DNA of 64,000 bases from the NCBI GenBank assembly GCA_050749685.1, contig JBOGRS010000002.1, forward strand, positions 3,881 to 67,880, written 5' to 3'. The notes beneath the pieces are model-generated. The model was not told the DNA's origin. It searched no databases and saw nothing but the letters and a program-made list of their open reading frames with translations. Numbering within the stretch: position 1 is the stretch's first letter; each line of letters starts with the position of its first letter. Shown here piece after piece: positions 34,122 to 63,396 of the stretch. Made by a program: the position numbers and the translations under genes. Origin of the DNA: Thermoplasmata archaeon. Its GTDB lineage: Archaea > Thermoplasmatota > Thermoplasmata > Lutacidiplasmatales > UBA184.

Positions 34122-34155
34122 CTATCGTCCCGCGGTCCCCGCCGATCGACGGACC

Positions 34156-34512
34156 GTGATCGCGGGCACCTCCGTCCACCTCGATGCGACGGCCGAGGGG
34201 CGCTCGGCCCACCGATGGCTGAGGGCCGCGTTCCTCCTCCAAACGATCCAAAGCGCGTTCTGGATCCTCCTCGGGATCGTTGCGCTCACCGCGTTCTCCT
34301 CGCCGCCGTTCCTGGCCGAGGGCGTGTTCTTCATCGTGGTCTCGCTCCTCTTCCTCGGCGTCGGGTGGTTCTTCTGCCTCGGTCCGGCCGGACGCGGGAT
34401 GCGGAGGGGGCCCGGGGACCGTCGCTCCTCCTCGGGATCGCCGGCCTTCCGCTCGGGTTCGTGGTGGTGGGTCTCCTCTATCTCGTGGCGTACGGGAAAT
34501 TGGGCTCGGTGA
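34156..34512 (+). CDS. small two-TM membrane protein (possibly the 5' part of a frameshifted gene)
   Basis: GTG start. Two clear helices: AFWILLGIVALTAF and VFFIVVSLLFLGVGWFF. Coding-like third codon positions in more than one frame downstream (see finding). Confidence 0.35.
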   Translation: MIAGTSVHLDATAEGRSAHRWLRAAFLLQTIQSAFWILLGIVALTAFSSPPFLAEGVFFIVVSLLFLGVGWFFCLGPAGRGMRRGPGDRRSSSGSPAFRSGSWWWVSSISWRTGNWAR

Positions 34513-34891
34513 CGTCGGTGGGGACCTTGACCCCGTCCGGTGCGGCGACGTGGAATCCGTCGTGGGCGATCGCGGCGCCGTCCCCCCCTCCCGGGTCGCC
34601 ACTCTCGACGACGGCGCCCGCTGAGGACACGACACGGTTCGTCGTGGCACCGCGCGTCGCGAGCCCGCCTCTGCCGACCCCGACGGCTCCCGCGTGGGGG
34701 AGTCCCTCACCCGCCCCGACCGACCTCGCCGACCCGGCGGCCTCCTCGCTGGACCCCGCGTCGGAGGCGCCGGACCCCCGCCTCCCGTCGATCTGCCCAC
34801 GCTGCCAGCTCGCCGCCGACTGGGTGCCGCAGTACCACGCTACTACTGTTACGCGTGCGGGCGCTACGTCCCGAAGTAGGCGATGGCCCCG

Positions 34892-35818
34892 CTACGGCAC
34901 CTTCGGAACGGGGACCTTATCGATCGCACCCTGTACGATCTGGGCGCCCCGGACGCCACGGATCCACGGTTCCGGCTTGACGAGGACGCGATGGGCCAGC
35001 GCGGGGAGCGCCAACGATTTTACGTCGTCCGGTACGACGTAGTCGCGACCCTCGAAAAGCGCCCGGGCGCGCGCGAGCTTGAGAAGCGCGAGCGACCCGC
35101 GGGGGGACGCCCCCACTTCCGCGCGGGGGTCGAGACGGGTGGACGCAACGACCTCCACGACGTAGCCCTCGATCGCCGGATCGATCGTCACGTCCTCGGC
35201 GGCGCGCTGGATCGCGCGGAACTGGTCCGCGGAGAGGACGACCGGGACCGTCGCATCGTCCGACTTGCGTTCGCGCCGCTGGCGCAGGATCTCGCGCTCC
35301 TCCTCGGCGGTGGGGTAGCCCACCGAGAGGCGCATCAGGAAGCGGTCGACCTGGGCCTCCGGGAGGGGATAGGTTCCCTCGAGGTCGATGGGGTTCTGGG
35401 TCGCGAGCACGAGGAACGGGCGCTCGAGCTTGTGGGTCGCCCGCTCGCTCGTGACCTGGTACTCCTGCATCGCCTCGAGCAGGGCCGATTGGACCTTCGG
35501 GGGCGCCCGGTTGATCTCATCGGCGAGCAGGACGTGCGTGAAGAGCGGGCCGGGACGAAAACTAAACGCGCCCCGTTGCGCGTCATACATCTCCCCTCCC
35601 GTGATGTCGTGGGGGAGAAGGTCCGCCGTGAACTGGATGCGGTTGAAGGTGAGGCCGAGCGCCGTGGCGAACGACTTCGCCATGAGCGTCTTGCCGAGGC
35701 CGGGAAGGTCCTCGAAGAGGAGGTGGCCGTCGGCGACGGCGCCGATCGTCAACTGGTCGAGGACCGTGTCCCGGCCCACGACGGCGCGGTGGACGGCGTC
35801 CCGCACCTGACCCAGCAA
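34892..35818 (-). CDS. MoxR family AAA+ ATPase
   Basis: Walker A GLPGLGKT, Walker B LLADEINR, and the MoxR-specific C-terminal helical domain. TTG start at 35818. Confidence 0.9.
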   Translation of the reverse strand: MLGQVRDAVHRAVVGRDTVLDQLTIGAVADGHLLFEDLPGLGKTLMAKSFATALGLTFNRIQFTADLLPHDITGGEMYDAQRGAFSFRPGPLFTHVLLADEINRAPPKVQSALLEAMQEYQVTSERATHKLERPFLVLATQNPIDLEGTYPLPEAQVDRFLMRLSVGYPTAEEEREILRQRRERKSDDATVPVVLSADQFRAIQRAAEDVTIDPAIEGYVVEVVASTRLDPRAEVGASPRGSLALLKLARARALFEGRDYVVPDDVKSLALPALAHRVLVKPEPWIRGVRGAQIVQGAIDKVPVPKVP

Positions 35819-36305
35819 CGCTCGAGCTTCCGCGCCGTTCGTCGGACGTCCCCCCGGGACCGTCAGCCATACCGCTATAACTGCCTATCCGAAAACCCTC
35901 GGGAACTCGCCCGGGGGAGCGCATCCCGCACGCATCCGTCCCGAGGATCGGGGTCGGCGACGCGCCGAGCCGGTCCACCGGCGCCGGCTCCCGGGAACGC
36001 TCGGGAATCGGCACCGGGACCGTGGGCGCGGAACGGTCGACGCCCCGCGACCGGATCCGGGTTCCCTTTCGGGATCGGCGGACGCTCGTGCGATCGCGAT
36101 AGTGTTCCCCGGCCGTAACGGTCTCGCGTCACGGCTAGGCCGATCGGCCCTCTCAGCGGCCTGACCCCGGCCGGGGGTATCGGACGCCGGGGTTGTCCTC
36201 ACGTCATCCCCTGCGGACGACCCGTCCGCGTTCGGTCAAGAGGGACCCTTCGTCGGAATCCGGGGGCGCCGCGCGGGCGCCCCGTTCGACCGTAGGCGTC
36301 CCGGT

Positions 36306-36788
36306 CTATGAGGGTGGCGCTGCCCCGCTCGTTCCGCTCTCTTGGCGGGCGAAGAGATAGGCCAGCAGCAGGAGGACCCCCACCACGAGGGCGGCGGCGA
36401 TCGCGACCTGGGCGGAGCCCGCCGGAAGCGCGATCGTGCTCCCGAGCGCGAGGGCGACGGCGAGCGACGGAAGACCGACGGTCGGAAGGAGGCCGGAGAG
36501 CGGCCGAGGATCGACGGCGGATTCGCCCACCACGAGAAGGAGGATCAACCCGGCGACGCCCGCCATCAGCTCGGTCACCGTCGTGACCGGGGCGACTGCG
36601 ACCAAGGCACCCGCGGCGACGAGGACGGGAAGAGGGGCGTACGGCCGGAAGCGGGGTCGGGTGAGACCCAGCGCGAGGGTCAAGCCCACGCCTCCGGCCA
36701 CGAGAAGGAACGCCGTCACGAGCCCCTCGCGGCCCAGCGTCCCGACGACGGCGAGCGGGACCGCCGCCAGGATCGATGCGCTCACCAA
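36306..36788 (-). CDS. hypothetical membrane protein (MoxR/DUF58 cluster)
   Basis: Four hydrophobic helices. TTG/GTG start near 36785-36788, about 40 nt downstream of the DUF58 stop. The maximal ORF up to 36926 overlaps the DUF58 gene and is rejected. Confidence 0.5.
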   Translation of the reverse strand: MVSASILAAVPLAVVGTLGREGLVTAFLLVAGGVGLTLALGLTRPRFRPYAPLPVLVAAGALVAVAPVTTVTELMAGVAGLILLLVVGESAVDPRPLSGLLPTVGLPSLAVALALGSTIALPAGSAQVAIAAALVVGVLLLLAYLFARQESGTSGAAPPS

Positions 36789-36826
36789 CCCGTCGAGACC
36801 TTGGCGGGGGGGCAAGGTCGGCGGCC

Positions 36827-38134
36827 TCAAGCCACCCTCCACGCCCGGGCCGGGCTCTTGAGGTAGTTCACCAGCGGGGCGAGCGACCAGTAGTCCTCCC
36901 ACTCCACGACCGGTGCCTCGGCCCACGCGGCCCCGAGGCGTTGGCGTCGCGCGAGTCGGAGGAGGCGAAGGGCGGTCGCATCGTCGGCGGTCGTGGGCGA
37001 GTCCGTCGGGCTCATGAGGGGGATCGGACTCGGCGAGAGGACGAAGGTGGGGTAGCCCCGGCGTCGTAGGTGCGGGAGGACGGTGATCGACCCTTCGTCG
37101 ACGAGCGTCGACAGGAGGAGCGTCGTGATCCCCGCCGGGAAGTACCGCCGCAAGGAGACCGCGAGCCGTTCGGGGGGACCGGGGGTCTCGACCGGGCCGG
37201 CGCGCTGGAGGGCGACCGCGATGCGGCGCCGTTGCACGCGTCCGGTCCCGAGCGCGACCGGGGTGAGGAACTCTCCGTAGAGCCCCAACCCGACCCGGGA
37301 CTTCGCGGAGAGGAAGGCGTCGGCGATGCCGAGCGCGGCGGCGCGGGTGATCGAGAGGAGCTGGGCGTCACGCTGGGATCCGAGCGAGGTGGGCCGTAGG
37401 TCGAGGAGCACGAGGAGATCCCCCGTCCGCTCGAGCTGATAGTCGTTCGCCAGGAGGCGGCCGGAACGCGCCGTCGCCCACCAGTTGATCTGGCGCGCCG
37501 TGTCCCCCGGGCCGGCGGCTCGGACCGCGAAGAACTCCCCCGAGGATCCGATCGTCCGCGAGCGGATCTCGCCCGGGGACGAGGTGGTCCGCCGAAGGTG
37601 CGCTCCGCCAATCCGGGCGACCTCGGGAGGAAAGCGCTCGATCCGGAGCGCCGGACCCGTGAGGGGGAGGGGGAGCTCGACCAGTCCGAGCGGATCCTCC
37701 CAGGCGACGTCGGGCCGCGCCAACGGGAGAAGGCACGGGAACGGCGCGTGGAAGGTCGCAGAAAACTCGACCGCGCCGGCCCGGGGGCGGACCGTCGGAC
37801 GGCGGGAGGTCGAAAGCGGCTCCGCCGGATAGAATCGCACGTGGACGGCGCGGGCGTCCACGGTCGGCGGGAGGACGATCTCCCCGCGAACCTCGACGTT
37901 CGCGCCGCTCCCCGATTCGGTCCATCGGAGCGTCGCCGGAGCTTCGCCGCTGGGTGCCTCGAGGAAGGCGGCCACCGGCGCGAGGAGGAGCGGAAGGGCG
38001 AGGAAGAGGGGCACCGGATTGAGGAGCGCGAGCGCGAGGACGACCAGGACGCCGCCCGAGGCGTAGAGGAGGAACGCCCGCGGTCGGAACGCCGGGCGGG
38101 CGTGGGTCTCCTCGTCCCGGGCGGACCACGTCAC
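36827..38134 (-). CDS. DUF58 domain protein (vWA-like, MoxR partner)
   Basis: FFAVRAAGPGDTARQINWWATARSGRLLANDYQLERTGDLLVLLD is the DUF58 signature. Two N-terminal TM helices. GTG at 38134 overlaps the upstream stop (GTGA). The first 220 aa of the maximal ORF are read-through. Confidence 0.75.
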   Translation of the reverse strand: MTWSARDEETHARPAFRPRAFLLYASGGVLVVLALALLNPVPLFLALPLLLAPVAAFLEAPSGEAPATLRWTESGSGANVEVRGEIVLPPTVDARAVHVRFYPAEPLSTSRRPTVRPRAGAVEFSATFHAPFPCLLPLARPDVAWEDPLGLVELPLPLTGPALRIERFPPEVARIGGAHLRRTTSSPGEIRSRTIGSSGEFFAVRAAGPGDTARQINWWATARSGRLLANDYQLERTGDLLVLLDLRPTSLGSQRDAQLLSITRAAALGIADAFLSAKSRVGLGLYGEFLTPVALGTGRVQRRRIAVALQRAGPVETPGPPERLAVSLRRYFPAGITTLLLSTLVDEGSITVLPHLRRRGYPTFVLSPSPIPLMSPTDSPTTADDATALRLLRLARRQRLGAAWAEAPVVEWEDYWSLAPLVNYLKSPARAWRVA

Positions 38135-38538
38135 GTTCCGCGCTCCAACCGGGCGACCTCTCCCTCGACCCATGCGCGGAACTCGGATGCGGGCAGATCG
38201 AGGAGCCGACGCTCGTCCTCGGCGCTCGTGTGCGCGAGCGTTCCGTGGCCCAGCTCGCGGTGCAGCGTCGCGATCGTGGCGACGATCGTCTGGCGACCGA
38301 GGCGCCCGGTGGTGAACGCGTCGCGCAGCGCGACCAGGGGATCCCCCGACAGCGGGGGAAGGGGGGCGACCGGGCGTCGCACCTTCGGCCAGAGCTCCTG
38401 CGCCGCGAGCGCCGCGGCCGCGATGGCGGCCAGGGTGGCGGCCGGTACGGCGGTCGACAGATTGCCCCCCGCCCATCCGGCCGCGGCGAGGCCGACGATG
38501 ACCACCCCGACCCAAAACCAGCGAGGCAGCTCGATCAT
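38131..38538 (-). CDS. small membrane protein (MoxR/DUF58 cluster)
   Basis: ATG at 38538 (MIELPRWFWVGVVIVGLAAAGWAGG...). ATGA overlap with the upstream gene and GTGA overlap with the DUF58 gene. Confidence 0.5.
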   Translation of the reverse strand: MIELPRWFWVGVVIVGLAAAGWAGGNLSTAVPAATLAAIAAAALAAQELWPKVRRPVAPLPPLSGDPLVALRDAFTTGRLGRQTIVATIATLHRELGHGTLAHTSAEDERRLLDLPASEFRAWVEGEVARLERGT

Positions 38539-39482
38539 GTCGCCTTCCGTGGGTGGCGATCGAGGTCGGAGAGGGCCCGGGTGAGGGAGGCGCGTGCGCG
38601 CTCGACCGATGCGATGGGGATCGGGTGGGGCGAGTAGCGGGCCTCCTCGAAGAGCAGGGTGAGCTCGTGGGAGGTCGCGGGCGTGACGCCCAAGTGGACC
38701 GTGCACTCGCGCTCGATCTCCCGCGGCGTGAGGCTCGCGAGGTCGAACGGGCCGTCCTCGATGCGGCTGAGGAGACGTGCATACGCCGCGACAATCCGGG
38801 AACGCGGGTCGGCGTCGGGATCGGCGTCCAAACCCTCGAGCGCGAGCCCGATCGTGGCGCGAGCGCTCGGCGTCGCGCCCCGACCGGTGCCTCGGGCCTC
38901 CCGATCGCGATGGGCGGCGATCAGGAAGGGGGTGACGACCGTCGCCACGACGAGCCCCCCGACCAGGATCGCCAGGTACTCCACCCACCCGGGGACTCCT
39001 CCGGATTCCAGCGGCACCCCGAAGCCGTTCCCGGTCCCGTTCGTCCCGCTCCCCCCCGACGAGGACCCGGTCCCGTTGGCGGCCGGTGGCGGAGCCGATC
39101 CCCCGACCCCGGCGAACCCGTGGCCGAACTCTCGCAGGAGGATCGCGATGGCGATCGTGGCGATGAACACGAGGAGGACCGCGGCGATGGCGAAGTTGGG
39201 GTACGCGACGCGGTCCTTGAGGCGGACGGCGATCCGCCAGCCCGCAACCCCGATGAGGACGAAACCGACCAGCTCGATCCCGAGCACGACCGTGCTGCCC
39301 GGCGTTCCCGTCGCGCCGGTGACCACTTGGGGAGGAGGGGGGATGACGGGGGCGGCGAGGAGCGAGGCCGCCGCTCCGAACGCGACCGCCGAGAGGACGA
39401 AGAGGGCGATCGCGGGAGAGAAGCGCGCGGGGGTGCGGACCTTTGGGGGTGCCGCTCCAGCGGTGCCCGTATCGGCGTTCAT
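38535..39482 (-). CDS. DUF4129 domain membrane protein
   Basis: Four TM helices with a Gly/Ser/Asn-rich loop. The C-terminal IVAAYARLLSRIEDGPFDLASLTPREIERE matches DUF4129, a common MoxR/DUF58 neighbour. Confidence 0.6.
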   Translation of the reverse strand: MNADTGTAGAAPPKVRTPARFSPAIALFVLSAVAFGAAASLLAAPVIPPPPQVVTGATGTPGSTVVLGIELVGFVLIGVAGWRIAVRLKDRVAYPNFAIAAVLLVFIATIAIAILLREFGHGFAGVGGSAPPPAANGTGSSSGGSGTNGTGNGFGVPLESGGVPGWVEYLAILVGGLVVATVVTPFLIAAHRDREARGTGRGATPSARATIGLALEGLDADPDADPRSRIVAAYARLLSRIEDGPFDLASLTPREIERECTVHLGVTPATSHELTLLFEEARYSPHPIPIASVERARASLTRALSDLDRHPRKAT

Positions 39483-40390
39483 CGCGGCGTCGAGACCTCC
39501 GTCCGCCCCCCCGCCGTCGGGGTAGGGGAGGGGTCCTTCACGAGGAAGTAGGCGCTCCGCCGTTCGTGCTCCGCGGTTACGACGGCGAAGTCCACTACGC
39601 GGTAGCCGATGTCAAAGGCCGCGCGGAAGGCGTCGCGCACCGCGTGGCGCCACCGCCTCACCGAAGCGGGCTCGTGCTCGAGGACGAGCTTGAGGTCGAA
39701 CGGAATCTCGAGATGGACGTGAGCCGCCGACGGTTCGACGACCGCGGTCGGGAGGCGGATGCCGGAGTCGCCGACTTCGGTCTCCACGATCGCAACGGAG
39801 CGGGCCCAGCGGTCCCGGTCCTCCTCGGGAGCGGGAAGACCTCCGGCGAGCCGCTCCACCGTCCGAGGCTCCGCGAGTTCCCAGGCGTAACCCACCCGGT
39901 CGCTCTCGTCGCCGGCGTCCGGGGCGTCCGAGCGCCGTCCGAAGTAGTGGGGCAGGAAGCGGTCCGGACGGGCGCCCAGCCGTCGCACGAGGAGGAAGGC
40001 GGTCCGGCTCTCGAGCGGGTCGAAGGCTCCCCGGATCCGGGGGAGGCCCTGGGCGAGCACCTCGTCGCGCTGGAACGCCTTGAGGCGGAAGCCCACATGG
40101 TGGTTCTGGTACTCCGGCCGCACGGCGGTGGCGACGGCGTAGTGGTAGAGACTGGTGCCGTCCCACCCCAGAAGTCCGACCGCGAACCCGGCGAGGTAGA
40201 TGTCGGCGAACGCTCCCAGGACCAGTCCCCCGTGGTCCTGCAGCGTCCGCTGGACTGACGCGGGGACGGCGGGTTCGCCCGCGGGACCGAACGCGACGGC
40301 GTGGACCTCCTCGACGGCCCGACGTTCCTCGGGCTTGTCCAGTCGGCGGAAGCGGAAGCCTTGGACCTCGCGGGCGGTCCGCAGCGCCAT
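39479..40390 (-). CDS. GNAT-fold family protein (COG3375-like)
   Basis: ATG at 40390. ATGA overlap with the DUF4129 gene. FRFRRLDKPEERRAVEEVHAVAFG and HYAVATAVRPEYQNHHVGFRL resemble an acetyltransferase fold. Weak call. Confidence 0.45.
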   Translation of the reverse strand: MALRTAREVQGFRFRRLDKPEERRAVEEVHAVAFGPAGEPAVPASVQRTLQDHGGLVLGAFADIYLAGFAVGLLGWDGTSLYHYAVATAVRPEYQNHHVGFRLKAFQRDEVLAQGLPRIRGAFDPLESRTAFLLVRRLGARPDRFLPHYFGRRSDAPDAGDESDRVGYAWELAEPRTVERLAGGLPAPEEDRDRWARSVAIVETEVGDSGIRLPTAVVEPSAAHVHLEIPFDLKLVLEHEPASVRRWRHAVRDAFRAAFDIGYRVVDFAVVTAEHERRSAYFLVKDPSPTPTAGGRTEVSTPR

Positions 40391-40436
40391 CGGCGTGGGA
40401 CCGTGAGGACGTACTTAACGGTCGAGGAGCGGGGTG

Positions 40437-43631: not shown

Positions 43632-43705
43632 GCGGGCATAGTGTAGTCTGGTTATCACATAGCCTTGCCAAGGCTATGACCCGGGTTCAAATCCCGGTGC
43701 CCGCA
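43632..43705 (+). tRNA. tRNA-Gly (anticodon GCC)
   Basis: Cloverleaf traced by hand. Acceptor GCGGGCA/UGCCCGC, anticodon arm UAGCC-UUGCCAA-GGCUA, T arm CCGGG-UUCAAAU-CCCGG, discriminator A. No CCA encoded. Confidence 0.9.
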
Positions 43706-43948: not shown

Positions 43949-46900
43949 TCACGTGCAGTTGCTGGCGCACGCGATCGACGAGGTCACGAGCGACGGGATG
44001 GAGAGACCGAGGCCCGCAAGCCCGAGGGTGATCCCCGCCGCATCCGCGATCGAGGTCTGCGACGCCTCGTCGGCGACCTCGGTGCTCGGATACAACTGAA
44101 CGATCACGCTGATCGCGGCCAGAACCACGCCGGCGGCGGACAGGATGACCTGCGCGAGCGTGTCCCCCACCGCGAGCGCGATGACGGACGCGACCAGCGC
44201 GAGGAAGCCGATGGCCAGGCCGACGATGTAGTTGCCGTCGATCGATTGCGTGAGGTAGGTGAAGAGCAGGTCCGCGAGCCCTTGGAAGAACGTCAGCACC
44301 GCGTTGACGATCCCCTCCCCGAGCTGGGCGCCCGAGTTGTTCGCGAGGAAGTCGATCGTGGTCGAGAACGGGTCGGTCCCTCCGAAGTTCGGAACGATGG
44401 TCTGCAAGGATGTGAGGATCGAGCCGGCGGCGAGCAACGCGGCGAGCCCTCCGGCGACGATGCCGGCGATGACCGCCTGCACCGCCGTGGACGCCCCTTC
44501 CGTCGCCGGGGTCGCGGTGCCTAGGCTCACGACGTCGATCACGTACATCACGATCGCCACGATCGCGAAGATCCCACCGATGAGGCCGGCGGCCGAATCG
44601 AGGAAGATCGCGATGTCGTTGCCCGCTCCGCTGAGATCGAGCGGCGATAAGATCGGTCCGGAGAGGTTGAACGTCGTGAAGATGTTCTGCATCGACCCGT
44701 TGTAGGCGCTCGAGGCGATCGCCCCGGTTCCGAGCAGGATGGAGAGGAGCGGGAGCGCGATGTAGGCGATCGCGGTCCCGAACGCCGTTTCCAACGCGTT
44801 CTTGATGGTCGTGAACAGCTTGGTGAGCTGGTCCTTCACCCACTGGAGGATGAAGTTGAGGGCGGAGAGGATCGCGTTGATCGCCGACTTGATCGCGGAG
44901 ATCGCCGCGTTCCAGGCCCCGACGACCCACTGGCCGATCTCCTTGGCGAGATTGACGATGAAGTTCGCCACCGCGAGGACGACCGAGACGATCGCGTCCA
45001 CGACCGAAACGATGATCGCGCCGAGGGCCTGCCAGAAGTTCTGCGGCGGGACCCCGACGGCGCTGTTGTAGCCGCCGAGCGGGAAGTACGGCGCGGCGTA
45101 CGCGACGCTCCCGTCCACCCCAAGGAGCTCGAATTGCAGCTGGCTCAGCGCCGTGAAGCCGCCCGTCGCGGCGCCCGTCGAGTTCACCGGCTGCAGGGCC
45201 CGGATGAGCAGGCCCGCGCACGTCGTGTCGATGGTCGCGGTCAGGCTCCCGGCGATGTCCATCGCGCTCTGCCCCGTGCGGTTCGAGAACTGCGCCAGGC
45301 TGAGGCAGGGCAGCCGCGTGAGCTGGCCATTGTCGAGGATCGTGCTGAAGGTGGAGTTGCCGAAGGCGGTCCGGCTGACGAGCAGGAGGTTCTGGCCCGC
45401 GACGAGCGGCGTCCCCGGGACGCTCCCCCCGACGATGTCGAGGTAGAACGCGTAGAAGTGCTGGTCCCCGTTGTAGTGCGGACCGTATCCGGGGATGTTC
45501 TGGACCTCGCCGGTCGAGTTGAGCAGCGTCACCGGCATCCGTGCGAGCGCGTAGACCTGGAAGACCACCGAAAAGCCTCCCTGGTTGTAGGTGTGGCTCC
45601 CCGAGGCGGGGTCGCTCGAGAACGTCATTGACGTGCTCGCGGCGGACCCGCTCCCGAGGGAGTAGTCCTGGTAGAGAGCGAGGCTGATCTTGATCGTCGA
45701 CGCCGTCGGATCGACGGGAAGCTGGTAGCCGACGTAGTACGAGTAGGACCAGTGGACGCAGGTGTCCCCGAACGAATAGTCGTTCGAGCCTCCGACCGTC
45801 GGCGTGTACATCGATGGCGAGCCGGGATAGCTTGATGCCTGGATCTGGACGACACCGCCGGCGTTCGAATCGGCGCCGAAATCGAAGATCGAGATGCACC
45901 CGCTCGTCGCCGTCTTGAGGTAGACGCCGAGGATCTTCGGGCCGCTCGTCGGGTTGACGGCGAGGCTGTCGAGTGCACCGTTGGTCCCGGTGCTCCCCGT
46001 CGTAGGGTTGAGCGGACCGGCGTAGGCGAGCCCGTCCCAGGGGTAGGTGGAGGCCTCCGACGCGACGTAGGCGTTGGCGGAGGACGAGAGGGCGTGGTTC
46101 GCCGTGGTATCGTAGATGGCGCGGCCGTAGGCCTTCATGCCGTCGGTGAGGGTGGGGTCCGAGAAGTGGACCGCCCACGGCGGGATGTGGAACTGGCGAT
46201 CCCCGTAGTAGGTAGCCCACGCGTGGGGATCGGACACCGTGCAGCCGCTCGCCGATCCCCGCGCGTAGCTCACGTTGACGGAGGGGTAGTAGGGGAGGCC
46301 CTGGACGACGGAGAGCTTCCAGTACTGCTCCGTGTACGGGTAGTAGTTCACCGTCGAGTAGGACATCGTCCGGCCGTCGAACACGGTGTAGTTCGATCCG
46401 ATAGGTTCGGTGCAGTTGAAAACCGGGATCGAGATCTCCCCACCGGTCACGAGGCCGGAGGCGTACGGGTCCGCACGGGTAGGATCAGTGTAGTACTGGA
46501 TGACGATCTGAGCGTTCTCAATCGTTCCCGGACCGCCCGAGACGGCAAGGTCCCAGTTGGCGCGGGACTGGAACTCCGCGAGGGTGAGGCCCGAGGACGA
46601 ATAGTTCGTCACGGCCCCACCGACGGGGGTGTTGTTGAACAGCGGGATCTCGCTCACCGGAGCGGTCGGGGTACCCAACGCGACCGTCGTTCCGAGGACG
46701 GGGAAGACCCCGCCCCCGATGTTGATGAGCTCGACGGAGAGCGACGCGAGGTCCGGTGAGACGATCTCGTCGTAGAGCGTCACGGAGCGGATCGACGCGC
46801 TCGAGCCCGGATGCTGTACCGAGGGGATGGTCACGACGCCCGAGGTGGCGAAGCTCGAGACCTCCGTCGACGAGAAACCGTCGCTGAACTGATGGGAACC

Positions 46901-49900
46901 GTCCAGGATGCTGTCCCCGGCGGAGTTGGGGTCGAGCGGGTTCGAGACGTAACCCGTGACCGTCCCGAAGACCTCCTGGAAGTCGGTGAGGCCATCATGG
47001 TCGGTGTCGGCGTTGCTCGCCTGCCCACCGACGATGAACGTCCGCATGAAGTCCGTGAGCCCCGTTCCCGAGTTCGCGTCGTTGCCCGGGGCGAGGTGCA
47101 GGAAGAGCGTGGCGTACTCGTCCGGGATCCCGTCGCCATCCCAGTTGGGAACGGAGATGAGCTGGGCCGAGGAGGTCGCGGTCCGTCCGTCCGAGGCGCT
47201 CACCTGGACGGCCAGGACCGGGTTCCCAGATTCCGTGTAGGTGTGCCCGACCGTGCCTACGAGGGAACCGGAGGTGGTGGTGCCACCGGAGCCGTCGCCG
47301 AAGGTCCACGCGTAGCTCAAGGACAGGGACACGTTCGCCCGGTCCGCCGCGGAACCGAGGACGATCGCCATGAACGGCGCGGTGTGGTTGACACCGTAGA
47401 CCGTGAACCCATCGTAGGGCAGGACGACCGTCAGTGGCTGGTTCACGACCGTGACGGTCGCGCTCGCCTCACCCACTGGACTACCGTCCTCGGTCGACAG
47501 CGTGAGCGTTTGGGTGTAGGTTCCGGGAGCCGCGTAGGTGTGTCCGGTCGTGAGTCCGCCGGTCGAGGGGGTCCCGTCGCCCCAATCCCACACGCCGCTC
47601 ATGCGGGCGAGGTCCGCTGGCGCGCCTCCCACCGAGCGCGGCGCAAAGAGCGCGTACTCGTCGACCGTCACGGATCGATCGGAGAGGGTGACCCCGACGG
47701 ACGCGTCCGAAACGACCACGTTGTGCGTCGTCGACGCCGAGAGACCCTCATCGTCCGTGACGGTGAGCGTGACCGGGAACGTTCCCTCGCTCGTGAAGGT
47801 GTGCTCGACCATCGGACCGGCTCCGACGAGCGCACCGCTCGGCTGGCCGTCGCCGAACGTCCAGTGGAACGAGAGGTTCCCCCCCGGCGCGGCACCGGCA
47901 TAGTCGACGCTGCTCGTGGCGTCGAACGCGACGGAGGTGAACTCCGCGATCGAGCCGCCGGGTCCGGTGAAGGTCGGGATCGGCGGCGCATTCGTGACGT
48001 TCACGAACTGCCAACTGACCGTGGTGTACCCGAGAGCGCCATCGGACACGTAGAGGGCGAGCGCGTAGCTGGTCGCCGAGTATCGGTAGAGGTGCGTGAT
48101 CGTCGCGAGCGGGCCGACGCCGGACTGGTGGCTCGTCCCGCCATCCCCGAACGCCCAGGTCGCGCCGAAGGAGGTCGAGCTGTAATTGAGCGAGGTGATC
48201 GTCGCATTGAGAGGGATGTGCGGCACCTGAGCGATGCGGTCCGGGACGACCAGCTGGACGGTGGGAGCCACGTCCGCGACGCTCGCGTCCCCGCTCTCCA
48301 CGACGGGGATGGTGGACGCAAAGCTCCCGGCATAGTCGTCCTCCACGCTCAGGCCGAGCTCGTAGGAGCCCCCCGGAAGCCAGCGGTGGGCGACGGCGAT
48401 CGTCCCGAGGGTGGGTTCCGCCGTGAGCGGAATCGCCGTCGCGATGCGGGACGACGCCCCGTCCCCGAAGTTCCAGATCGTCGTGAGATGGGTCCGCGAC
48501 GGCGAGAAGACCTGCGCCTTGAGGAAAACGAGCTGTCCCACGGACGCTGCGTTCCCGTCGATGTTCCAGATGGTGGTGGCCGTCTGGGAGGCGATGAACC
48601 GATGCGTGTAGAGCTGGGACGAACAGATCGAACTCGAGTAGGTGGTCGCGCACGAACCTCCATTGCCCCAGAAGTCGACGGTGAGGTCGACCGGGTTCGC
48701 GCCCTTGATCGTGCCGCTCGACGGTGCGACGTAGGCGATCCGGATCGTGTCGTTGTCCGCGAGCTGGATGGGAACGTTCGTGAGCGTGAGGACATCGTTC
48801 CTCGGGTCGCCGTGGGCGCGCACGAGAAGGCCGTATGCGATGAGGCGCCCGTTCTCGAGCACACTCACGTTGAGCGTGTTGCCGGGGGTCCCCTTCATCG
48901 TGAGGGTGATGTTGGCGAGCGTGTAGGCGGAGTAGAGGCCGACGTTCGGGTTCACGTCGGACACCACGAGCGAGGTGGAGTCGTGCGACGTGAGCGACTC
49001 CTCGTCCGTGACCGCGAGGTTGGCGGTGTAGGTCCCGGGCTCGAAGTACGCCGTCCGGCCGATGACCCCGTTCGACGCGCTGGCGTCCGAGACGTTCGGG
49101 ACGGACGTGGACCACGAGTAGTTGAGACCGGGAAGGTCCGTTGGGACGTCGACGGTGGCCGTACCGTTGAGCGGGATCACGGCTCCGACCACGTACGGAG
49201 CCACCGGCGTCGCGCCCGCGCTGGCGCCCGGCGGGGGGTTCACGATCGTGACCGTGGTCTCGGTCAAGGCCGTCGCGCCCTCTTCGTCGGTGACCCTTAG
49301 GGTGACGGCGTACGTCCCGCTCTCCGTGTAAACGTGGGACGCGGTGATCCCGGCACCCAGGGTCCCGTCGCCGAAGTCCCACCAGTAGCGCAGGTGAGGA
49401 ACATCCGGTGGGACATCCGTCGTGGCCGCCCCCGAGACGGTCACGTTGGTGTCCTCGGCGTACGTGTCGAGGGTGAGCGAGGACGTCGTGAAGGTGATCA
49501 CGGGATTGGGGAGAGGGTTCACGACCCTGATGTCGGAGCGGAAGCTCTGGTTGGCCGCGCCGGTGCGGTTGTCGTAGACGGTGACCCCCACCACGTAGTT
49601 TCCGGCATCACGGTAGGCGTGCGCGACCGGGTTGCCCCACGTCGAGTTGTTGTCGCCGAAGTCCCAGCGGTAGGCGAGGGCGTCGGACTCGTACGAGGCA
49701 GGCGTGGTCGTCGCGGCCCCGGTGAACTCGATCGGCGAGTCCTCGTTCGCCGTCGTGACGTTGGTCGTGATCGACGGGTGGAGCACGGGAGGAAGAACGT
49801 TCGCGACATCGGTCGCGATCTGGTAGTCTCCTTCCGCGTCGTAGACCGTGAGGGAGATCGCGAACGAGCCGGAACGTGCGTAGGTGTGGGTGAACGATAC

Positions 49901-50974
49901 CTCCTCCGAGGAGGTGCAGATCGATCCGGCCGAGGCGCAACCGGCCGGCGGTGGGACGATCGACTTGTCGTAGCCGATGGCGCCGGTCGAATTCGTCTGC
50001 CCGTAGAACCAGAGGAGGAGGTATCCCGAAAAGGTACCCGCGACCGTGGAGGTCGGCACTCCGCCCGTGATGTTGGCAAAGACCGTCATCGGGACCCCGG
50101 CCGTGGCCGTCGTGGGGTTCATCCCGCTCACCGAGATCGCGGGGGTGGTCAGCGCTCGGGCCGCACCGACGGCCTGGAAGCCCCCGATGACCATGAGGAG
50201 GCAGAGGGCGAAGGCGGTCGTGGCCCGAAGCGCGATGCTGGGAGGTCTACGGGCCGATCGCCCCCCCGAGCGCGCGGTCCGTTCGCCGGCCGGCCCCGGA
50301 CCCTGGTCCCGAGCAAGGGGCGTCCACGCGGAGCTCCGAGAGGATGGCGCCGGCCCGACCCCAGCCCGCCCGGCAGGGCGGGGGGAGGCGCGGCGAGGTG
50401 CTCGGGCCAAGCTACGCAGCTCACGGTGCACGGCGAAGAGCGCGGTGAGGTCGTCCGCTCGCGCCGCGCTCGAGAGGAGGACGAGCGCCGACCCGATCGC
50501 GGCGTCGCGGGCAGGCGAGGGTGAGGCGCGGCGTATCCTGCGGCCCATCGCGATGGCCGATCGAAGGATCGTCGTACGCGCACGCTGCCGGACGATGCGC
50601 AATTCCTCGCGGGCGCGTCGCTCCGCCTCGCGGAGCCCGAATCCATCTCCCGAGTCCGAGGCGTGCATCGCGGAGGCGGAGGGCCCGGAATCCAACACGG
50701 TGGACGGCATCGCCTCGCGGGCGGCCGACCGGATCCGCGTCCCCTCCTCCCGCAACGCGAAGATCGGCGATGCGCCCTCCGTGAGGCGGCCGGCCAGGCC
50801 TTCCGCCAATCCCAGAAGCTGGAGCGCGGCGTCGGTCCGCCCGGCGTGAGCTAATTGATCGATCGCATGCCCGACCCGAGCGATCGGGAAGGCAATTCCT
50901 GCGGCCCGGAGCGACGCGGCCACATCGACAAGTCGTTCCTGGCGGGTCTGGATTTCGCGCTCCACGTCGAACAT
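43949..50974 (-). CDS. giant (2341 aa) surface glycoprotein-like protein with many PKD repeats, TSP3-like Ca-binding motifs and a polytopic C-terminal membrane domain
   Basis: Repeated PKD signatures (WDFGDG, WNFGDG, WTFGDG, WAFGDG, WDWGDG). DxDxDGxxD motifs (DTDHDGLTDFQE, WDGDGIPDE). Dozens of N-x-S/T sequons. A signal-anchor-like segment RSARRPPSIALRATTAFALCLLMVIGGFQAVGAARA follows a 260-aa N-terminal region. Seven or eight hydrophobic helices fill the last 450 aa. ATG at 50974 lies about 24 nt downstream of a TATA-like element. Confidence 0.8.
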   Translation of the reverse strand: MFDVEREIQTRQERLVDVAASLRAAGIAFPIARVGHAIDQLAHAGRTDAALQLLGLAEGLAGRLTEGASPIFALREEGTRIRSAAREAMPSTVLDSGPSASAMHASDSGDGFGLREAERRAREELRIVRQRARTTILRSAIAMGRRIRRASPSPARDAAIGSALVLLSSAARADDLTALFAVHRELRSLARAPRRASPRPAGRAGVGPAPSSRSSAWTPLARDQGPGPAGERTARSGGRSARRPPSIALRATTAFALCLLMVIGGFQAVGAARALTTPAISVSGMNPTTATAGVPMTVFANITGGVPTSTVAGTFSGYLLLWFYGQTNSTGAIGYDKSIVPPPAGCASAGSICTSSEEVSFTHTYARSGSFAISLTVYDAEGDYQIATDVANVLPPVLHPSITTNVTTANEDSPIEFTGAATTTPASYESDALAYRWDFGDNNSTWGNPVAHAYRDAGNYVVGVTVYDNRTGAANQSFRSDIRVVNPLPNPVITFTTSSLTLDTYAEDTNVTVSGAATTDVPPDVPHLRYWWDFGDGTLGAGITASHVYTESGTYAVTLRVTDEEGATALTETTVTIVNPPPGASAGATPVAPYVVGAVIPLNGTATVDVPTDLPGLNYSWSTSVPNVSDASASNGVIGRTAYFEPGTYTANLAVTDEESLTSHDSTSLVVSDVNPNVGLYSAYTLANITLTMKGTPGNTLNVSVLENGRLIAYGLLVRAHGDPRNDVLTLTNVPIQLADNDTIRIAYVAPSSGTIKGANPVDLTVDFWGNGGSCATTYSSSICSSQLYTHRFIASQTATTIWNIDGNAASVGQLVFLKAQVFSPSRTHLTTIWNFGDGASSRIATAIPLTAEPTLGTIAVAHRWLPGGSYELGLSVEDDYAGSFASTIPVVESGDASVADVAPTVQLVVPDRIAQVPHIPLNATITSLNYSSTSFGATWAFGDGGTSHQSGVGPLATITHLYRYSATSYALALYVSDGALGYTTVSWQFVNVTNAPPIPTFTGPGGSIAEFTSVAFDATSSVDYAGAAPGGNLSFHWTFGDGQPSGALVGAGPMVEHTFTSEGTFPVTLTVTDDEGLSASTTHNVVVSDASVGVTLSDRSVTVDEYALFAPRSVGGAPADLARMSGVWDWGDGTPSTGGLTTGHTYAAPGTYTQTLTLSTEDGSPVGEASATVTVVNQPLTVVLPYDGFTVYGVNHTAPFMAIVLGSAADRANVSLSLSYAWTFGDGSGGTTTSGSLVGTVGHTYTESGNPVLAVQVSASDGRTATSSAQLISVPNWDGDGIPDEYATLFLHLAPGNDANSGTGLTDFMRTFIVGGQASNADTDHDGLTDFQEVFGTVTGYVSNPLDPNSAGDSILDGSHQFSDGFSSTEVSSFATSGVVTIPSVQHPGSSASIRSVTLYDEIVSPDLASLSVELINIGGGVFPVLGTTVALGTPTAPVSEIPLFNNTPVGGAVTNYSSSGLTLAEFQSRANWDLAVSGGPGTIENAQIVIQYYTDPTRADPYASGLVTGGEISIPVFNCTEPIGSNYTVFDGRTMSYSTVNYYPYTEQYWKLSVVQGLPYYPSVNVSYARGSASGCTVSDPHAWATYYGDRQFHIPPWAVHFSDPTLTDGMKAYGRAIYDTTANHALSSSANAYVASEASTYPWDGLAYAGPLNPTTGSTGTNGALDSLAVNPTSGPKILGVYLKTATSGCISIFDFGADSNAGGVVQIQASSYPGSPSMYTPTVGGSNDYSFGDTCVHWSYSYYVGYQLPVDPTASTIKISLALYQDYSLGSGSAASTSMTFSSDPASGSHTYNQGGFSVVFQVYALARMPVTLLNSTGEVQNIPGYGPHYNGDQHFYAFYLDIVGGSVPGTPLVAGQNLLLVSRTAFGNSTFSTILDNGQLTRLPCLSLAQFSNRTGQSAMDIAGSLTATIDTTCAGLLIRALQPVNSTGAATGGFTALSQLQFELLGVDGSVAYAAPYFPLGGYNSAVGVPPQNFWQALGAIIVSVVDAIVSVVLAVANFIVNLAKEIGQWVVGAWNAAISAIKSAINAILSALNFILQWVKDQLTKLFTTIKNALETAFGTAIAYIALPLLSILLGTGAIASSAYNGSMQNIFTTFNLSGPILSPLDLSGAGNDIAIFLDSAAGLIGGIFAIVAIVMYVIDVVSLGTATPATEGASTAVQAVIAGIVAGGLAALLAAGSILTSLQTIVPNFGGTDPFSTTIDFLANNSGAQLGEGIVNAVLTFFQGLADLLFTYLTQSIDGNYIVGLAIGFLALVASVIALAVGDTLAQVILSAAGVVLAAISVIVQLYPSTEVADEASQTSIADAAGITLGLAGLGLSIPSLVTSSIACASNCT

Positions 50975-63273: not shown

Positions 63274-63396
63274 GGCTGACAGCTTTCCACGGTTCCCGTA
63301 GGCTCGCGCACTTCAGTACCGCGCGGAACGCCAGTGGGCTTAACTGCCGGGTTCGGAATGAGACCGGGTGTTTCCCCACCGCTTTGGCCGTCAGCC
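63274..63396 (-). rRNA. rrf: 5S ribosomal RNA, unlinked to 16S/23S
   Basis: Minus-strand RNA GGCUGACGGCC AAAGCGGUGGGGAAACACCCGGUCUCAUUCCGAACCCGGCAGUUAAGCCCACUGGCGUUCCGCGCGGUACUGAAGUGCGCGAGCCUACGGGAACCGUGGAAA GCUGUCAGCC. It contains the universal 5S blocks GGGAAACACC, CAUUCCGAAC, GUUAAGCC, GUACUG, GCGAG and ACGGGAA. A 10-bp terminal helix I closes it. Confidence 0.85.

Follow-up and report, generated by a model that had tools for sequence, protein, structure and literature searches.

Two groups of described systems stand closest to the locus considered here. The first consists of archaeal box H/ACA guide RNAs. Haloferax volcanii sR-h45 is a double-hairpin H/ACA RNA whose stem-loops 1 and 2 guide, in the same 5ʹ to 3ʹ order, the same two 23S rRNA sites that are predicted below for a further RNA (PMC7075261). 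In Pyrococcus abyssi, the target of Pab91 lies at 23S position 2685 and that of motif 3 of Pab40 (HgcG) at position 2016, in helix 69 (PMC2377435). Pyrococcus H/ACA RNAs follow a set of rules, namely a lower stem of at least 7 bp, a helix H2 of 5 to 6 bp, and a distance of 14 to 15 nt between the ANA box and the target uridine (PMC2377435); this spacing is also known as the n+15 rule (PMC7075261). The second group consists of gene clusters that join MoxR ATPases to DUF58 proteins, such as the Bifidobacterium PFNA operon pkb2-fn3-aaa-atp-duf58-tgm, a MoxR (MRP subfamily)–DUF58–transglutaminase cluster (PMC6803598). The region described here occupies positions 34892–40390 on the minus strand of a 64-kb window, the whole stretch of DNA that was analysed (64,000 nucleotides of contig JBOGRS010000002.1 from a Thermoplasmata archaeon). 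Between an operon of membrane proteins that includes DUF58 and a MoxR gene, it holds an unannotated RNA of ~185 nt. This RNA is, with high confidence, a box H/ACA guide of Thermoplasmata with the same function as sR-h45, and would direct pseudouridylation of 23S rRNA.

The window has a G+C content of ~72%, and its nearest database proteins come from metagenome-assembled genomes (MAGs) named "Thermoplasmata archaeon." A profile-based scan, run on one genome per GTDB species, yielded 63 loci, all of them in Thermoplasmata MAGs and some labelled Lutacidiplasmatales.

A conserved structured RNA between DUF58 and MoxR

The features of the RNA, as predicted, are as follows.

36100..36283, minus strand: unannotated small RNA (sRNA) of ~185 nt, predicted box H/ACA-type guide, made up of stem-loop SL0 and then two H/ACA hairpins
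36304..36316, minus strand: candidate transcription factor B recognition element (BRE)/TATA of the sRNA gene, the AT-rich last codon and stop of the 174-aa gene, CCCUCAUAG
36263..36283, minus strand: SL0, 8 bp in the window and 6–9 bp across species, adjoining hairpin 1
36178..36262, minus strand: H/ACA hairpin 1, lower stem 36262–36254/36189–36181 (9 bp), ANA box AUA at 36180–36178 directly after the stem
36253–36244 and 36196–36190, minus strand: pocket strands of hairpin 1, ACGAAGGGUC and ACAACCC, 10 and 7 nt
36237–36236 and 36205–36204, minus strand: GA dinucleotides of the hairpin 1 kink-turn (K-turn), with a 3-nt loop; apical hairpin at 36229–36213
36103..36176, minus strand: H/ACA hairpin 2, lower stem 36176–36169/36114–36107 (8 bp), ACA box at 36105–36103, one nucleotide after the stem
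36168–36162 and 36119–36115, minus strand: pocket strands of hairpin 2, GGGGUCA and GUUAC, 7 and 5 nt
36154–36153 and 36130–36129, minus strand: GA dinucleotides of the hairpin 2 K-turn, with a variable 3-nt loop (36133–36131) after an invariant C-G closing pair

Searches with nhmmer find the element in 59 loci, each with exactly one copy, and once in the window (36263–36102, E = 2e-45). The RNA follows the stop codon of the gene for a 174-aa polytopic transmembrane (TM) protein by ~43 nt, and the spacing from this stop to hairpin 1 is 38–50 nt in most loci. It remains beside the TM gene where other DNA parts it from MoxR, namely two genes in locus L029, in which MoxR lies 1.25 kb away, and 190 bp in the window. 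A core of ~165 nt is 80%–100% conserved, with a mean column identity of 82%; the DUF58 proteins are 43%–62% identical. In six-frame translations of the gaps, identical peptide strings occur in differing frames between loci, and the loops contain 1–2-nt indels. Because the peptide strings shift frame, the DNA is conserved without a conserved open reading frame (ORF); a small protein gene in the gap is ruled out by these shifts and by indels that are not multiples of three.

The structure was obtained with RNAalifold and refined by hand, and covariation was assessed on 45 distinct sequences (1888 cells). Of these cells, 97.7% are paired, 12 pairs show compensatory changes, and none of 500 shuffles does equally well, while control structures slid by 1–3 columns are 36%–50% paired. 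The alignment includes 102 G-U cells, which places the RNA on the gene (minus) strand. An RNA on the reverse strand was rejected, since these cells would turn into A-C mismatches and the ANA and GA motifs are strand-specific. RNase P RNA and signal recognition particle RNA were also rejected, because the element has neither the length nor the conserved motifs of these RNAs and gives no Rfam match. At E ≤ 10, an Rfam scan of the gap gives only chance-level matches, among them HgcG (Pab40) motif 3 on hairpin 2 (10.6 bits against a threshold of 77), which covers model positions 201–267.

SL0 is fixed in position and variable in sequence. A hairpin of at least 6 bp ends 0–2 nt before hairpin 1 in 52 of 57 distinct sequences, compared with 40% of shuffles, and 30 distinct hexamers are found in its 3ʹ arm (57 species). 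One possibility is that it protects the 5ʹ end or serves in processing. Farther upstream, between −50 and −46 counted from where hairpin 1 begins, the AT frequency rises to 0.56–0.84, against a background of ~0.2 (57 species), and this AT-rich peak stands ~27 nt before the start of SL0. A distance of ~27 nt is usual between an archaeal TATA box and the transcription start. The sRNA probably has its own promoter, which would overlap the stop codon of the 174-aa gene.

H/ACA anatomy of the two hairpins

Both hairpins consist of a lower stem of at least 7 bp, a pocket, and an upper stem, and their helices are 93%–100% paired across the 45 sequences. All four GA dinucleotides are invariant in this set, as are the A positions of both A-N-A boxes (columns 98–100 and 174–176). 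Compensatory changes in hairpin 1 affect the lower stem, the C-helix at 44–68 (C-G to U-A, 13 sequences), and three pairs of the apical hairpin; those in hairpin 2 are found at 106–168, 108–166, 119–158 (13 sequences), 122–153, and 133–138. Hairpin 2 has an upper stem of ~6 bp and an apical hairpin of variable length, and the upper stem (helix H2) comprises ~6 levels in both hairpins. From the top of the pocket to the ANA box, the distance is 14 nt in both, counted in hairpin 1 from the last pairing base, A36194, and in hairpin 2 from the foot of the upper stem. Judged from the sequences, the lower stems and pockets, the ANA spacing, and the K-turns are those of an archaeal box H/ACA sRNA, and L7Ae binding is predicted from the geometry.

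Predicted rRNA targets

Targets were scored over all 816 uridines of the 16S, 23S, and 5S rRNAs of the Haloarcula marismortui rrnB operon, a haloarchaeal proxy for the 23S rRNA of the lineage itself, with no site selected beforehand. For hairpin 2, contiguous pairs and duplex energy both put first a site in helix 69, GGGGUAAC[UA]UGACCCUC, with 5+7 contiguous base pairs. It scores 11.5, compared with 8.0 for the next best site, and none of 200 shuffled guides reaches it. The site corresponds to 23S U1961 in locus numbering and is also the top site in a bacterial 23S rRNA. We take the target to be U1940 of H. volcanii, equivalent to 1956 of H. marismortui and 1915 of Escherichia coli. The helix 69 site agrees base for base with the described H. 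volcanii positions 1932–1947 (PMC7075261).

For hairpin 1, when one small internal loop is allowed, the best site is GCUGGGUU[UA]GACCGUCGU (GGGUU[UA]GACCGUCGU), with 5+4+4 bp. It scores 12.0 versus 9.0 for the next best, and 1 of 200 shuffled guides reaches it. This is U2626 of the 23S rRNA in locus numbering, equal to 2621 in H. marismortui, 2605 in H. volcanii, and 2586 in E. coli. The assignment is weaker than that of hairpin 2, because by contiguous pairs alone the site ties with one near the A-loop and 33 of 200 shuffled guides score equally. The RNA most likely guides two pseudouridine modifications of 23S rRNA, as predicted from these pairings.

Three further observations concern the targets. 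The 3ʹ pocket strand of hairpin 1, ACAACC, also pairs with GGUUGU near the A-loop, GAGGUUGU[UC]GCC (H. marismortui 23S 2595 in locus numbering); this pairing has 6+4 bp and an ANA distance of 16 nt, and the site may serve as a secondary target of atypical geometry. The bacterial 23S rRNA was uninformative for hairpin 1, since it has a C where the target uridine would lie. When metagenomes were searched for the helix 69 target pattern, CCGTAACTNTGACC...AAGGTAGC, a single bacterial large-subunit rRNA was returned, in agreement with the region assigned, and no Thermoplasmata 23S rRNA.

The MoxR gene and its putative promoter

Downstream of the RNA lie the MoxR gene and a candidate promoter.

34892..35818, minus strand: MoxR-family AAA+ ATPase, 308 aa from TTG 35818, AAA_3 205.6 bits, AAA_lid_2 81.2 bits
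35875..35880, minus strand: TATA-like box TTATAG of MoxR, TTATAGCGG, common to L071; putative promoter

The MoxR motifs are intact in the translation (Walker A GLGKT, Walker B LLADE, and the sensor/arginine motifs ATQNP and EAQVDRF), and the protein matches PDB entry 2R44 at E = 7e-75. An ATATA/TTATA box is kept ~35–45 nt upstream of the MoxR start in the gap alignment. Since this conserved TATA-like box stands between the RNA and MoxR, MoxR is very probably transcribed from its own promoter downstream of the RNA.

Placement of the MoxR start at TTG 35818 is uncertain. In relatives, the gene starts GTG-AAC-GGx-GCx-GAG (VNGAEA...); here and in L071, this ancestral GTG is ACG (35842–35840). The first canonical start in the window is TTG 35818, eight codons downstream of the ACG, and an out-of-frame ATG is found at 35870.

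The membrane-protein operon

Upstream of the RNA, five genes on the same strand form a chain.

39479..40390, minus strand: GNAT-fold protein of COG3375 type, 303 aa; opens the overlap chain in this genome
38535..39482, minus strand: DUF4129 membrane protein, 315 aa, PF13559 31.9 bits (cut-off 24.8) over residues 233–300
38131..38538, minus strand: small membrane protein p135, 135 aa, ~2 TM segments, ATGA/GTGA overlaps
36827..38134, minus strand: DUF58 protein, 435 aa, PF01882 30.9 bits (cut-off 23.4)
36306..36830, minus strand: polytopic membrane protein (TM), 174 aa, at least five hydrophobic segments, TTG start within a TTGA overlap with the DUF58 stop

An initial annotation of this DNA had recognised the chain, and much of its description stands. 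The minus-strand ORFs 40390–39479, 39482–38535, 38538–38131, 38134–36827, and 35818–34892 are present as it gave them, and an independent assembly of the same genome yields the same calls. The junction sequences read ATGA (39482–39479), ATGA (38538–38535), and GTGA (38134–38131), again as annotated. Its fifth gene, placed at 36788–36306 and described as having four TM segments, had to be redrawn: the real start is TTG 36830, the overlap with the DUF58 stop is TTGA, and there are at least five hydrophobic segments rather than four. Relatives have an ORF of 170–178 aa that begins 4 nt before the DUF58 stop, which supports this start, and the gene is called likewise in L071, a relative with a DUF58 protein 80% identical, and in the second assembly of the same genome. 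With this correction, the tight translational coupling that had been proposed is borne out and extended, the chain of 4-nt overlaps running through five genes including TTGA at 36830–36827. The assignments of MoxR, DUF58, and DUF4129 hold with Pfam scores above the cut-offs. The "GNAT-like" label survives on other grounds: the Pfam score is below its cut-off, yet the AlphaFold2 (AF2) model has a GNAT fold. The claim that no vWA/BatA-type protein is present is correct in that there is no separate BatA or BatB gene and mistaken in that DUF58 itself bears a von Willebrand factor A (vWA)-fold domain.

The 303-aa protein is assigned to the GNAT fold superfamily from its model, and acetyltransferase activity is only predicted. 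Acetyltransf_1 scores 18.1 bits against a Pfam cut-off of 20.7, homologues are named "predicted GNAT superfamily acetyltransferase" by the Joint Genome Institute (JGI), and a PDB profile search matches an AANAT-like protein (E = 0.0036). In the AF2 model, with a predicted local confidence (pLDDT) of 79.6, the N-terminal ~170 residues match the GNATs Ard1, RimI, and Naa50 at TMt ~0.7 and probability 1.00. Overlap of this gene with DUF4129 is confined to the present genome and the relative nearest to it; elsewhere, the two are 60–130 bp apart or have a paralogue between them, so the place of the GNAT-like gene in the module is doubtful. In loci L003 (4341–6600), L007, L009, and others, the GNAT-like gene is followed by a second DUF4129-domain gene, a paralogue of ~315 to 408 aa, which precedes the core DUF4129 gene.

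The DUF4129 protein has four hydrophobic segments (19–48, 59–86, 91–123, and 162–191) and a C-terminal DUF4129 domain. It bears the NCBI name "DUF4129 domain-containing protein," and a search for its homologues yielded seven proteins. In Pfam, none of the six cluster proteins matches a transglutaminase family at E ≤ 0.01. Small protein p135 has no match in Pfam, NCBIfam, or PADLOC, and its position is conserved at 30%–47% identity in nearly all related loci. The 174-aa protein is likewise without a family match in Pfam, NCBIfam, and PADLOC. More broadly, NCBIfam has nothing for the five non-MoxR proteins, and the anti-phage component models of PADLOC match none of seven proteins.

The homologue search for DUF58 found 376 proteins, those listed being from Thermoplasmata MAGs. 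In its AF2 model (pLDDT 83.5), two N-terminal TM helices precede a beta-sandwich, after which come the DUF58 signature segment and a C-terminal alpha/beta domain. For this last domain, the top Foldseek matches are vWA domains at probability 1.00, including BatA-like 4jdu, BatB 3ibs, and the MDN1 metal ion-dependent adhesion site (MIDAS) domain 8ql1; on the model, DUF58 is itself the vWA-type partner. The MIDAS is degenerate (D245-L-R247-P-T-S, with D245 and R247 invariant in 50 homologues), and the intact motif DxSxS...T...D of the BatA/BatB type is not present in DUF58. Residues 184–236 (~37585–37427, minus strand; GEFFAVR...DT.RQINW.ATAR.G.LLANDY.LERTGD) are the most sequence-invariant stretch of the protein yet have a pLDDT below 50. 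They may be a partner-induced or MoxR-binding segment.

Gene order across the lineage

The order DUF3198/GNAT-like/DUF4129/p135/DUF58/TM/spacer/MoxR/2-Hacid_dh is found in 59 of the 63 GTDB species loci. Searches by tblastn with the window proteins recover it nearly wherever contigs extend, and the gene calls of three long contigs concur. The MoxR-last layout with a spacer is lineage-typical in these soil archaea and ordinary, because the same order is common to 59 of 63 species loci. The initial annotation had called it atypical unless related genomes commonly shared it, and the neighbourhood comparison finds just such sharing.

The four-gene set DUF4129-p135-DUF58-TM keeps its 4-nt overlaps in relatives with just 43%–60% identity. 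A distant clade (L052, L055, L059, and L067; ~43% DUF58 identity) retains DUF4129-p135-DUF58-TM175, with genes overlapping or abutting; within 6 kb of this DUF58 module, both the sRNA and MoxR are absent. Because this clade keeps the four genes without MoxR nearby, they are regarded as the conserved core. Genes for the tRNA methyltransferase GCD14, 2-Hacid_dh, an aminotransferase, archease, and IleRS are equally syntenic across the order; with the whole neighbourhood syntenic, adjacency alone is weak evidence of function.

A genome-specific insertion in the spacer

One feature of the gap upstream of MoxR is particular to this genome.

35881..36099, minus strand: spacer between the sRNA and the MoxR promoter, with a ~190-bp GC-rich insertion peculiar to this genome

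The gap measures 487 bp in the window (36305–35819), compared with ~255–300 bp in most measured relatives, and this insertion accounts for the difference. It is found in both assemblies of this genome and is absent from L071, whose TATA box comes ~25 nt after the RNA. No homologue of it occurs in the window or in 71 loci, and the part of the gap outside the RNA does not exceed shuffled controls in folding (z = −1.69). Three identities were considered for the insertion and rejected, namely repeat, mobile element, and second RNA, given no homologue, no significant fold, and only chance-level repeats. The length of the "490-bp non-coding gap" of the initial annotation is essentially right; its description as non-coding is not, since ~185 nt of it (36283–36100) form a conserved structured RNA gene. 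The GC-rich hairpins that had been noted there are likewise those of the RNA gene, the rest of the gap showing no excess of structure over shuffles.

In L029 (7970–9098), the sRNA is parted from MoxR by two inserted genes of the opposite strand, one glyoxalase/VOC-like (137 aa) and the other encoding a multi-TM protein of 225 aa. The junction between sRNA and MoxR therefore tolerates insertions.

Other features of the window

Between MoxR and the 2-hydroxyacid dehydrogenase gene lies a gap of ~770 bp (34122–34891); many relatives have ~20–100 bp here, and others have larger insertions. AT skew on its plus strand is strongly negative, and hydrophobic ORF fragments and a CxxC motif occur in differing plus-strand frames. 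It may be a degraded or frameshifted gene for a small membrane or zinc-ribbon protein. At the other end of the region, a TTAAGTA box (40412–40418, minus strand) stands ~25 nt upstream of the GNAT-like ATG, within the 46-bp intergenic region after the DUF3198 gene, and is a possible promoter for a leaderless transcript of the operon.

The window also contains a stand-alone 5S rRNA gene (63274–63395, minus strand) and a tRNA-Gly(GCC) gene (43632–43705, plus strand); 16S and 23S rRNA genes are absent from its 64 kb. Thermoplasmata rRNA genes are unlinked, with which the lone 5S gene agrees. A 2341-aa protein encoded at 43949–50974 (minus strand) has many PKD repeats and C-terminal hydrophobic segments and is probably a giant surface protein.

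Alternative explanations

Several observations weigh against the assignment of the RNA to the box H/ACA guides. An Rfam gathering scan of the window returns only the 5S rRNA and tRNA-Gly, with no family for the RNA and no significant H/ACA model. SL0, which carries neither an ANA box nor a K-turn, has no equivalent among the H/ACA RNAs described. In hairpin 1, the upper stem has just four Watson-Crick pairs below the K-turn unless G32-C34 pair, the 5ʹ guide duplex needs a 2x1 internal loop, and contiguous pairing leaves the tie with the A-loop site; moreover, both targets were scored on a haloarchaeal rRNA in place of that of the lineage. If the element were a structured noncoding RNA of another, undescribed class, its H/ACA likeness and target matches being coincidental, the lack of a significant Rfam match and the 33 of 200 shuffled guides that equal hairpin 1 would be expected, and the very high sequence conservation could reflect other constraints. 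This is very improbable in view of two K-turn motifs, two ANA boxes at 14 nt, the pocket geometry, and top targets that are the sR-h45 sites in the same order. A cis-regulatory role, as a 3ʹ untranslated region (UTR) stabiliser or as a leader or L7Ae-binding K-turn switch for MoxR, in place of a trans-acting guide, is improbable too. It would fit the fixed distance of ~43 nt from the 174-aa stop, the constant position between DUF58/TM and MoxR, and the presence of SL0, which the H/ACA model does not explain; regulation by L7Ae through K-turns in the leaders of mRNAs is reported (PMC6298567). However, a TATA box lies between the element and MoxR, the element stays in place when MoxR is moved 1.25 kb, and a UTR would not be expected to have ANA boxes at n+15, bipartite pockets, and invariant pockets that match two known sites of pseudouridine in rRNA. 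The assignment as a trans-acting box H/ACA guide is preferred over both.

A separate question is whether MoxR acts on the module beside it. The functional link between MoxR and DUF58 draws on the general association of both families, and the DUF58 module of the distant clade without MoxR within 6 kb counts against it. MoxR might adjoin the DUF58 operon by inherited synteny only, without acting on DUF4129, p135, DUF58, or TM, as the equal synteny of unrelated housekeeping genes, the separate MoxR promoter, the intervening RNA gene, and the distant clade all suggest. This is rather unlikely: MoxR–DUF58 pairing is widespread, as in the PFNA cluster aaa-atp/duf58/tgm (PMC6803598), DUF58 has the vWA-type fold usual for MoxR partners, and the adjacency is kept in 59 species despite insertions at the junction. 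That MoxR still works with the upstream module is most likely. The original view of an atypical MoxR-last layout, a long empty hairpin-rich spacer, and an unusual stoichiometric membrane complex is now hardly credible. The overlaps and the membrane nature of four products are real, but the layout is the norm in the order, the spacer holds a conserved RNA gene and a putative promoter, and its GC-rich remainder is peculiar to this genome and shows no excess of folding over shuffles. It is also most improbable that the placement of the guide RNA between DUF58 and MoxR, kept in at least 59 species, is functional, with the module taking part in large-subunit or ribonucleoprotein (RNP) biogenesis at the membrane or the sRNA being made from the operon transcript, which would tie ribosome modification to expression of the membrane complex. 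MoxR bears a faint likeness to midasin/Rea1 in sequence, and the vWA-like domain of DUF58 bears one in fold, the MDN1 MIDAS domain standing at rank 43 amid generic vWA matches. Midasin/Rea1 is the eukaryotic AAA+/MIDAS machine that remodels pre-60S ribosomes.

A proposed model and its implications

We infer the transcription and processing of the RNA, the pseudouridylation, the promoters, and the function of MoxR and DUF58. On this basis, the region is likely to combine a membrane operon, an H/ACA guide sRNA, and a separately transcribed MoxR that works with the module. The first unit would be the translationally coupled operon of GNAT-fold, DUF4129, 135-aa TM, DUF58, and 174-aa polytopic proteins. 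A membrane complex of DUF4129 (four TM segments), p135 (~2), DUF58 (two), and the 174-aa protein (at least five) is plausible. The second would be the ~185-nt double-hairpin H/ACA sRNA on the same strand, probably with its own promoter. If it works as characterised archaeal H/ACA RNPs do, L7Ae would bind the K-turn of each hairpin, Cbf5/Nop10/Gar1 would bind its lower stem and ANA box, and its pocket would pair with 23S rRNA. Hairpin 1 would thereby place U2586 (E. coli), in the peptidyl-transferase centre, for conversion to pseudouridine, and hairpin 2 would place U1915, in helix 69. The third unit would be MoxR, with transcription driven by a separate TATA box that follows the RNA. On the general model for MoxR ATPases, which is the most economical one here, a cytoplasmic MoxR AAA+ hexamer may dock on the vWA-like domain of the membrane-anchored DUF58 protein and use ATP to assemble or remodel the DUF4129/p135/TM complex.

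The RNA represents a guide RNA family absent from Rfam, from an uncultured soil archaeal order, with unusually clean covariation, and no H/ACA guide RNA described for Thermoplasmata was found in the literature searched. It offers two testable targets at functionally central 23S positions, in helix 69 and the peptidyl-transferase centre. The pairing of these two guides on one double-hairpin RNA, so far haloarchaeal, is suggested to be older or more widespread. For annotators, the RNA model can fill a conserved gap in dozens of MAGs. For the proteins, the false lead of a MoxR-last anomaly is removed, and the DUF4129-p135-DUF58-TM core emerges as the likely client or adaptor set of MoxR.

Comparison with known systems

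Among MoxR systems, the Bacteroides Bat (aerotolerance) operon resembles the window cluster in having MoxR and DUF58, and the DUF58 domain described here resembles the BatA-like 4jdu and BatB 3ibs folds. The window cluster differs in having no separate BatA/BatB or TPR protein and in its degenerate MIDAS (DLRPTS). Like the PFNA operon, it encodes a MoxR ATPase together with DUF58 and a polytopic membrane partner. Unlike PFNA, it has MoxR last, with a putative promoter of its own and behind an sRNA gene, and is without the transglutaminase core, the kinase, and FN3. DUF4129 is typically the C-terminal domain of TgpA-type transglutaminases; in the window cluster, it is carried by a small four-TM protein, to which two further small membrane proteins are coupled.

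Among guide RNAs, Pab91 and motif 3 of Pab40 apparently share their targets and structural rules with the window RNA, and the faint HgcG match falls on hairpin 2. Their positions are equated here with E. coli 2586 and 1917 on the assumption of a numbering offset of ~99. In Pyrococcus, the guides reside on two RNAs, one single-hairpin and one triple-hairpin, whereas in the window a single double-hairpin RNA carries both. The closest counterpart is sR-h45, with which the RNA was compared by description rather than by sequence, and which belongs to Halobacteria rather than Thermoplasmata. The linker between hairpins is 4 nt in the window RNA and 56 nt in sR-h45, and SL0 is an extra 5ʹ stem-loop in the former. 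Hairpin 2 leaves only UN unpaired, the canonical arrangement, whereas stem-loop 2 of sR-h45 leaves UNUN and makes two pseudouridines. In other respects, the two RNAs are alike: both have two hairpins, K-turns with tandem G:A pairs, and n+15 spacing, and in both the 5ʹ hairpin is followed by AUA and the 3ʹ hairpin by ACA. Their targets also correspond, the 5ʹ hairpin being directed, in the window RNA as predicted, to the peptidyl-transferase-centre uridine (H. volcanii 2605) and the 3ʹ hairpin to helix 69 (1940).

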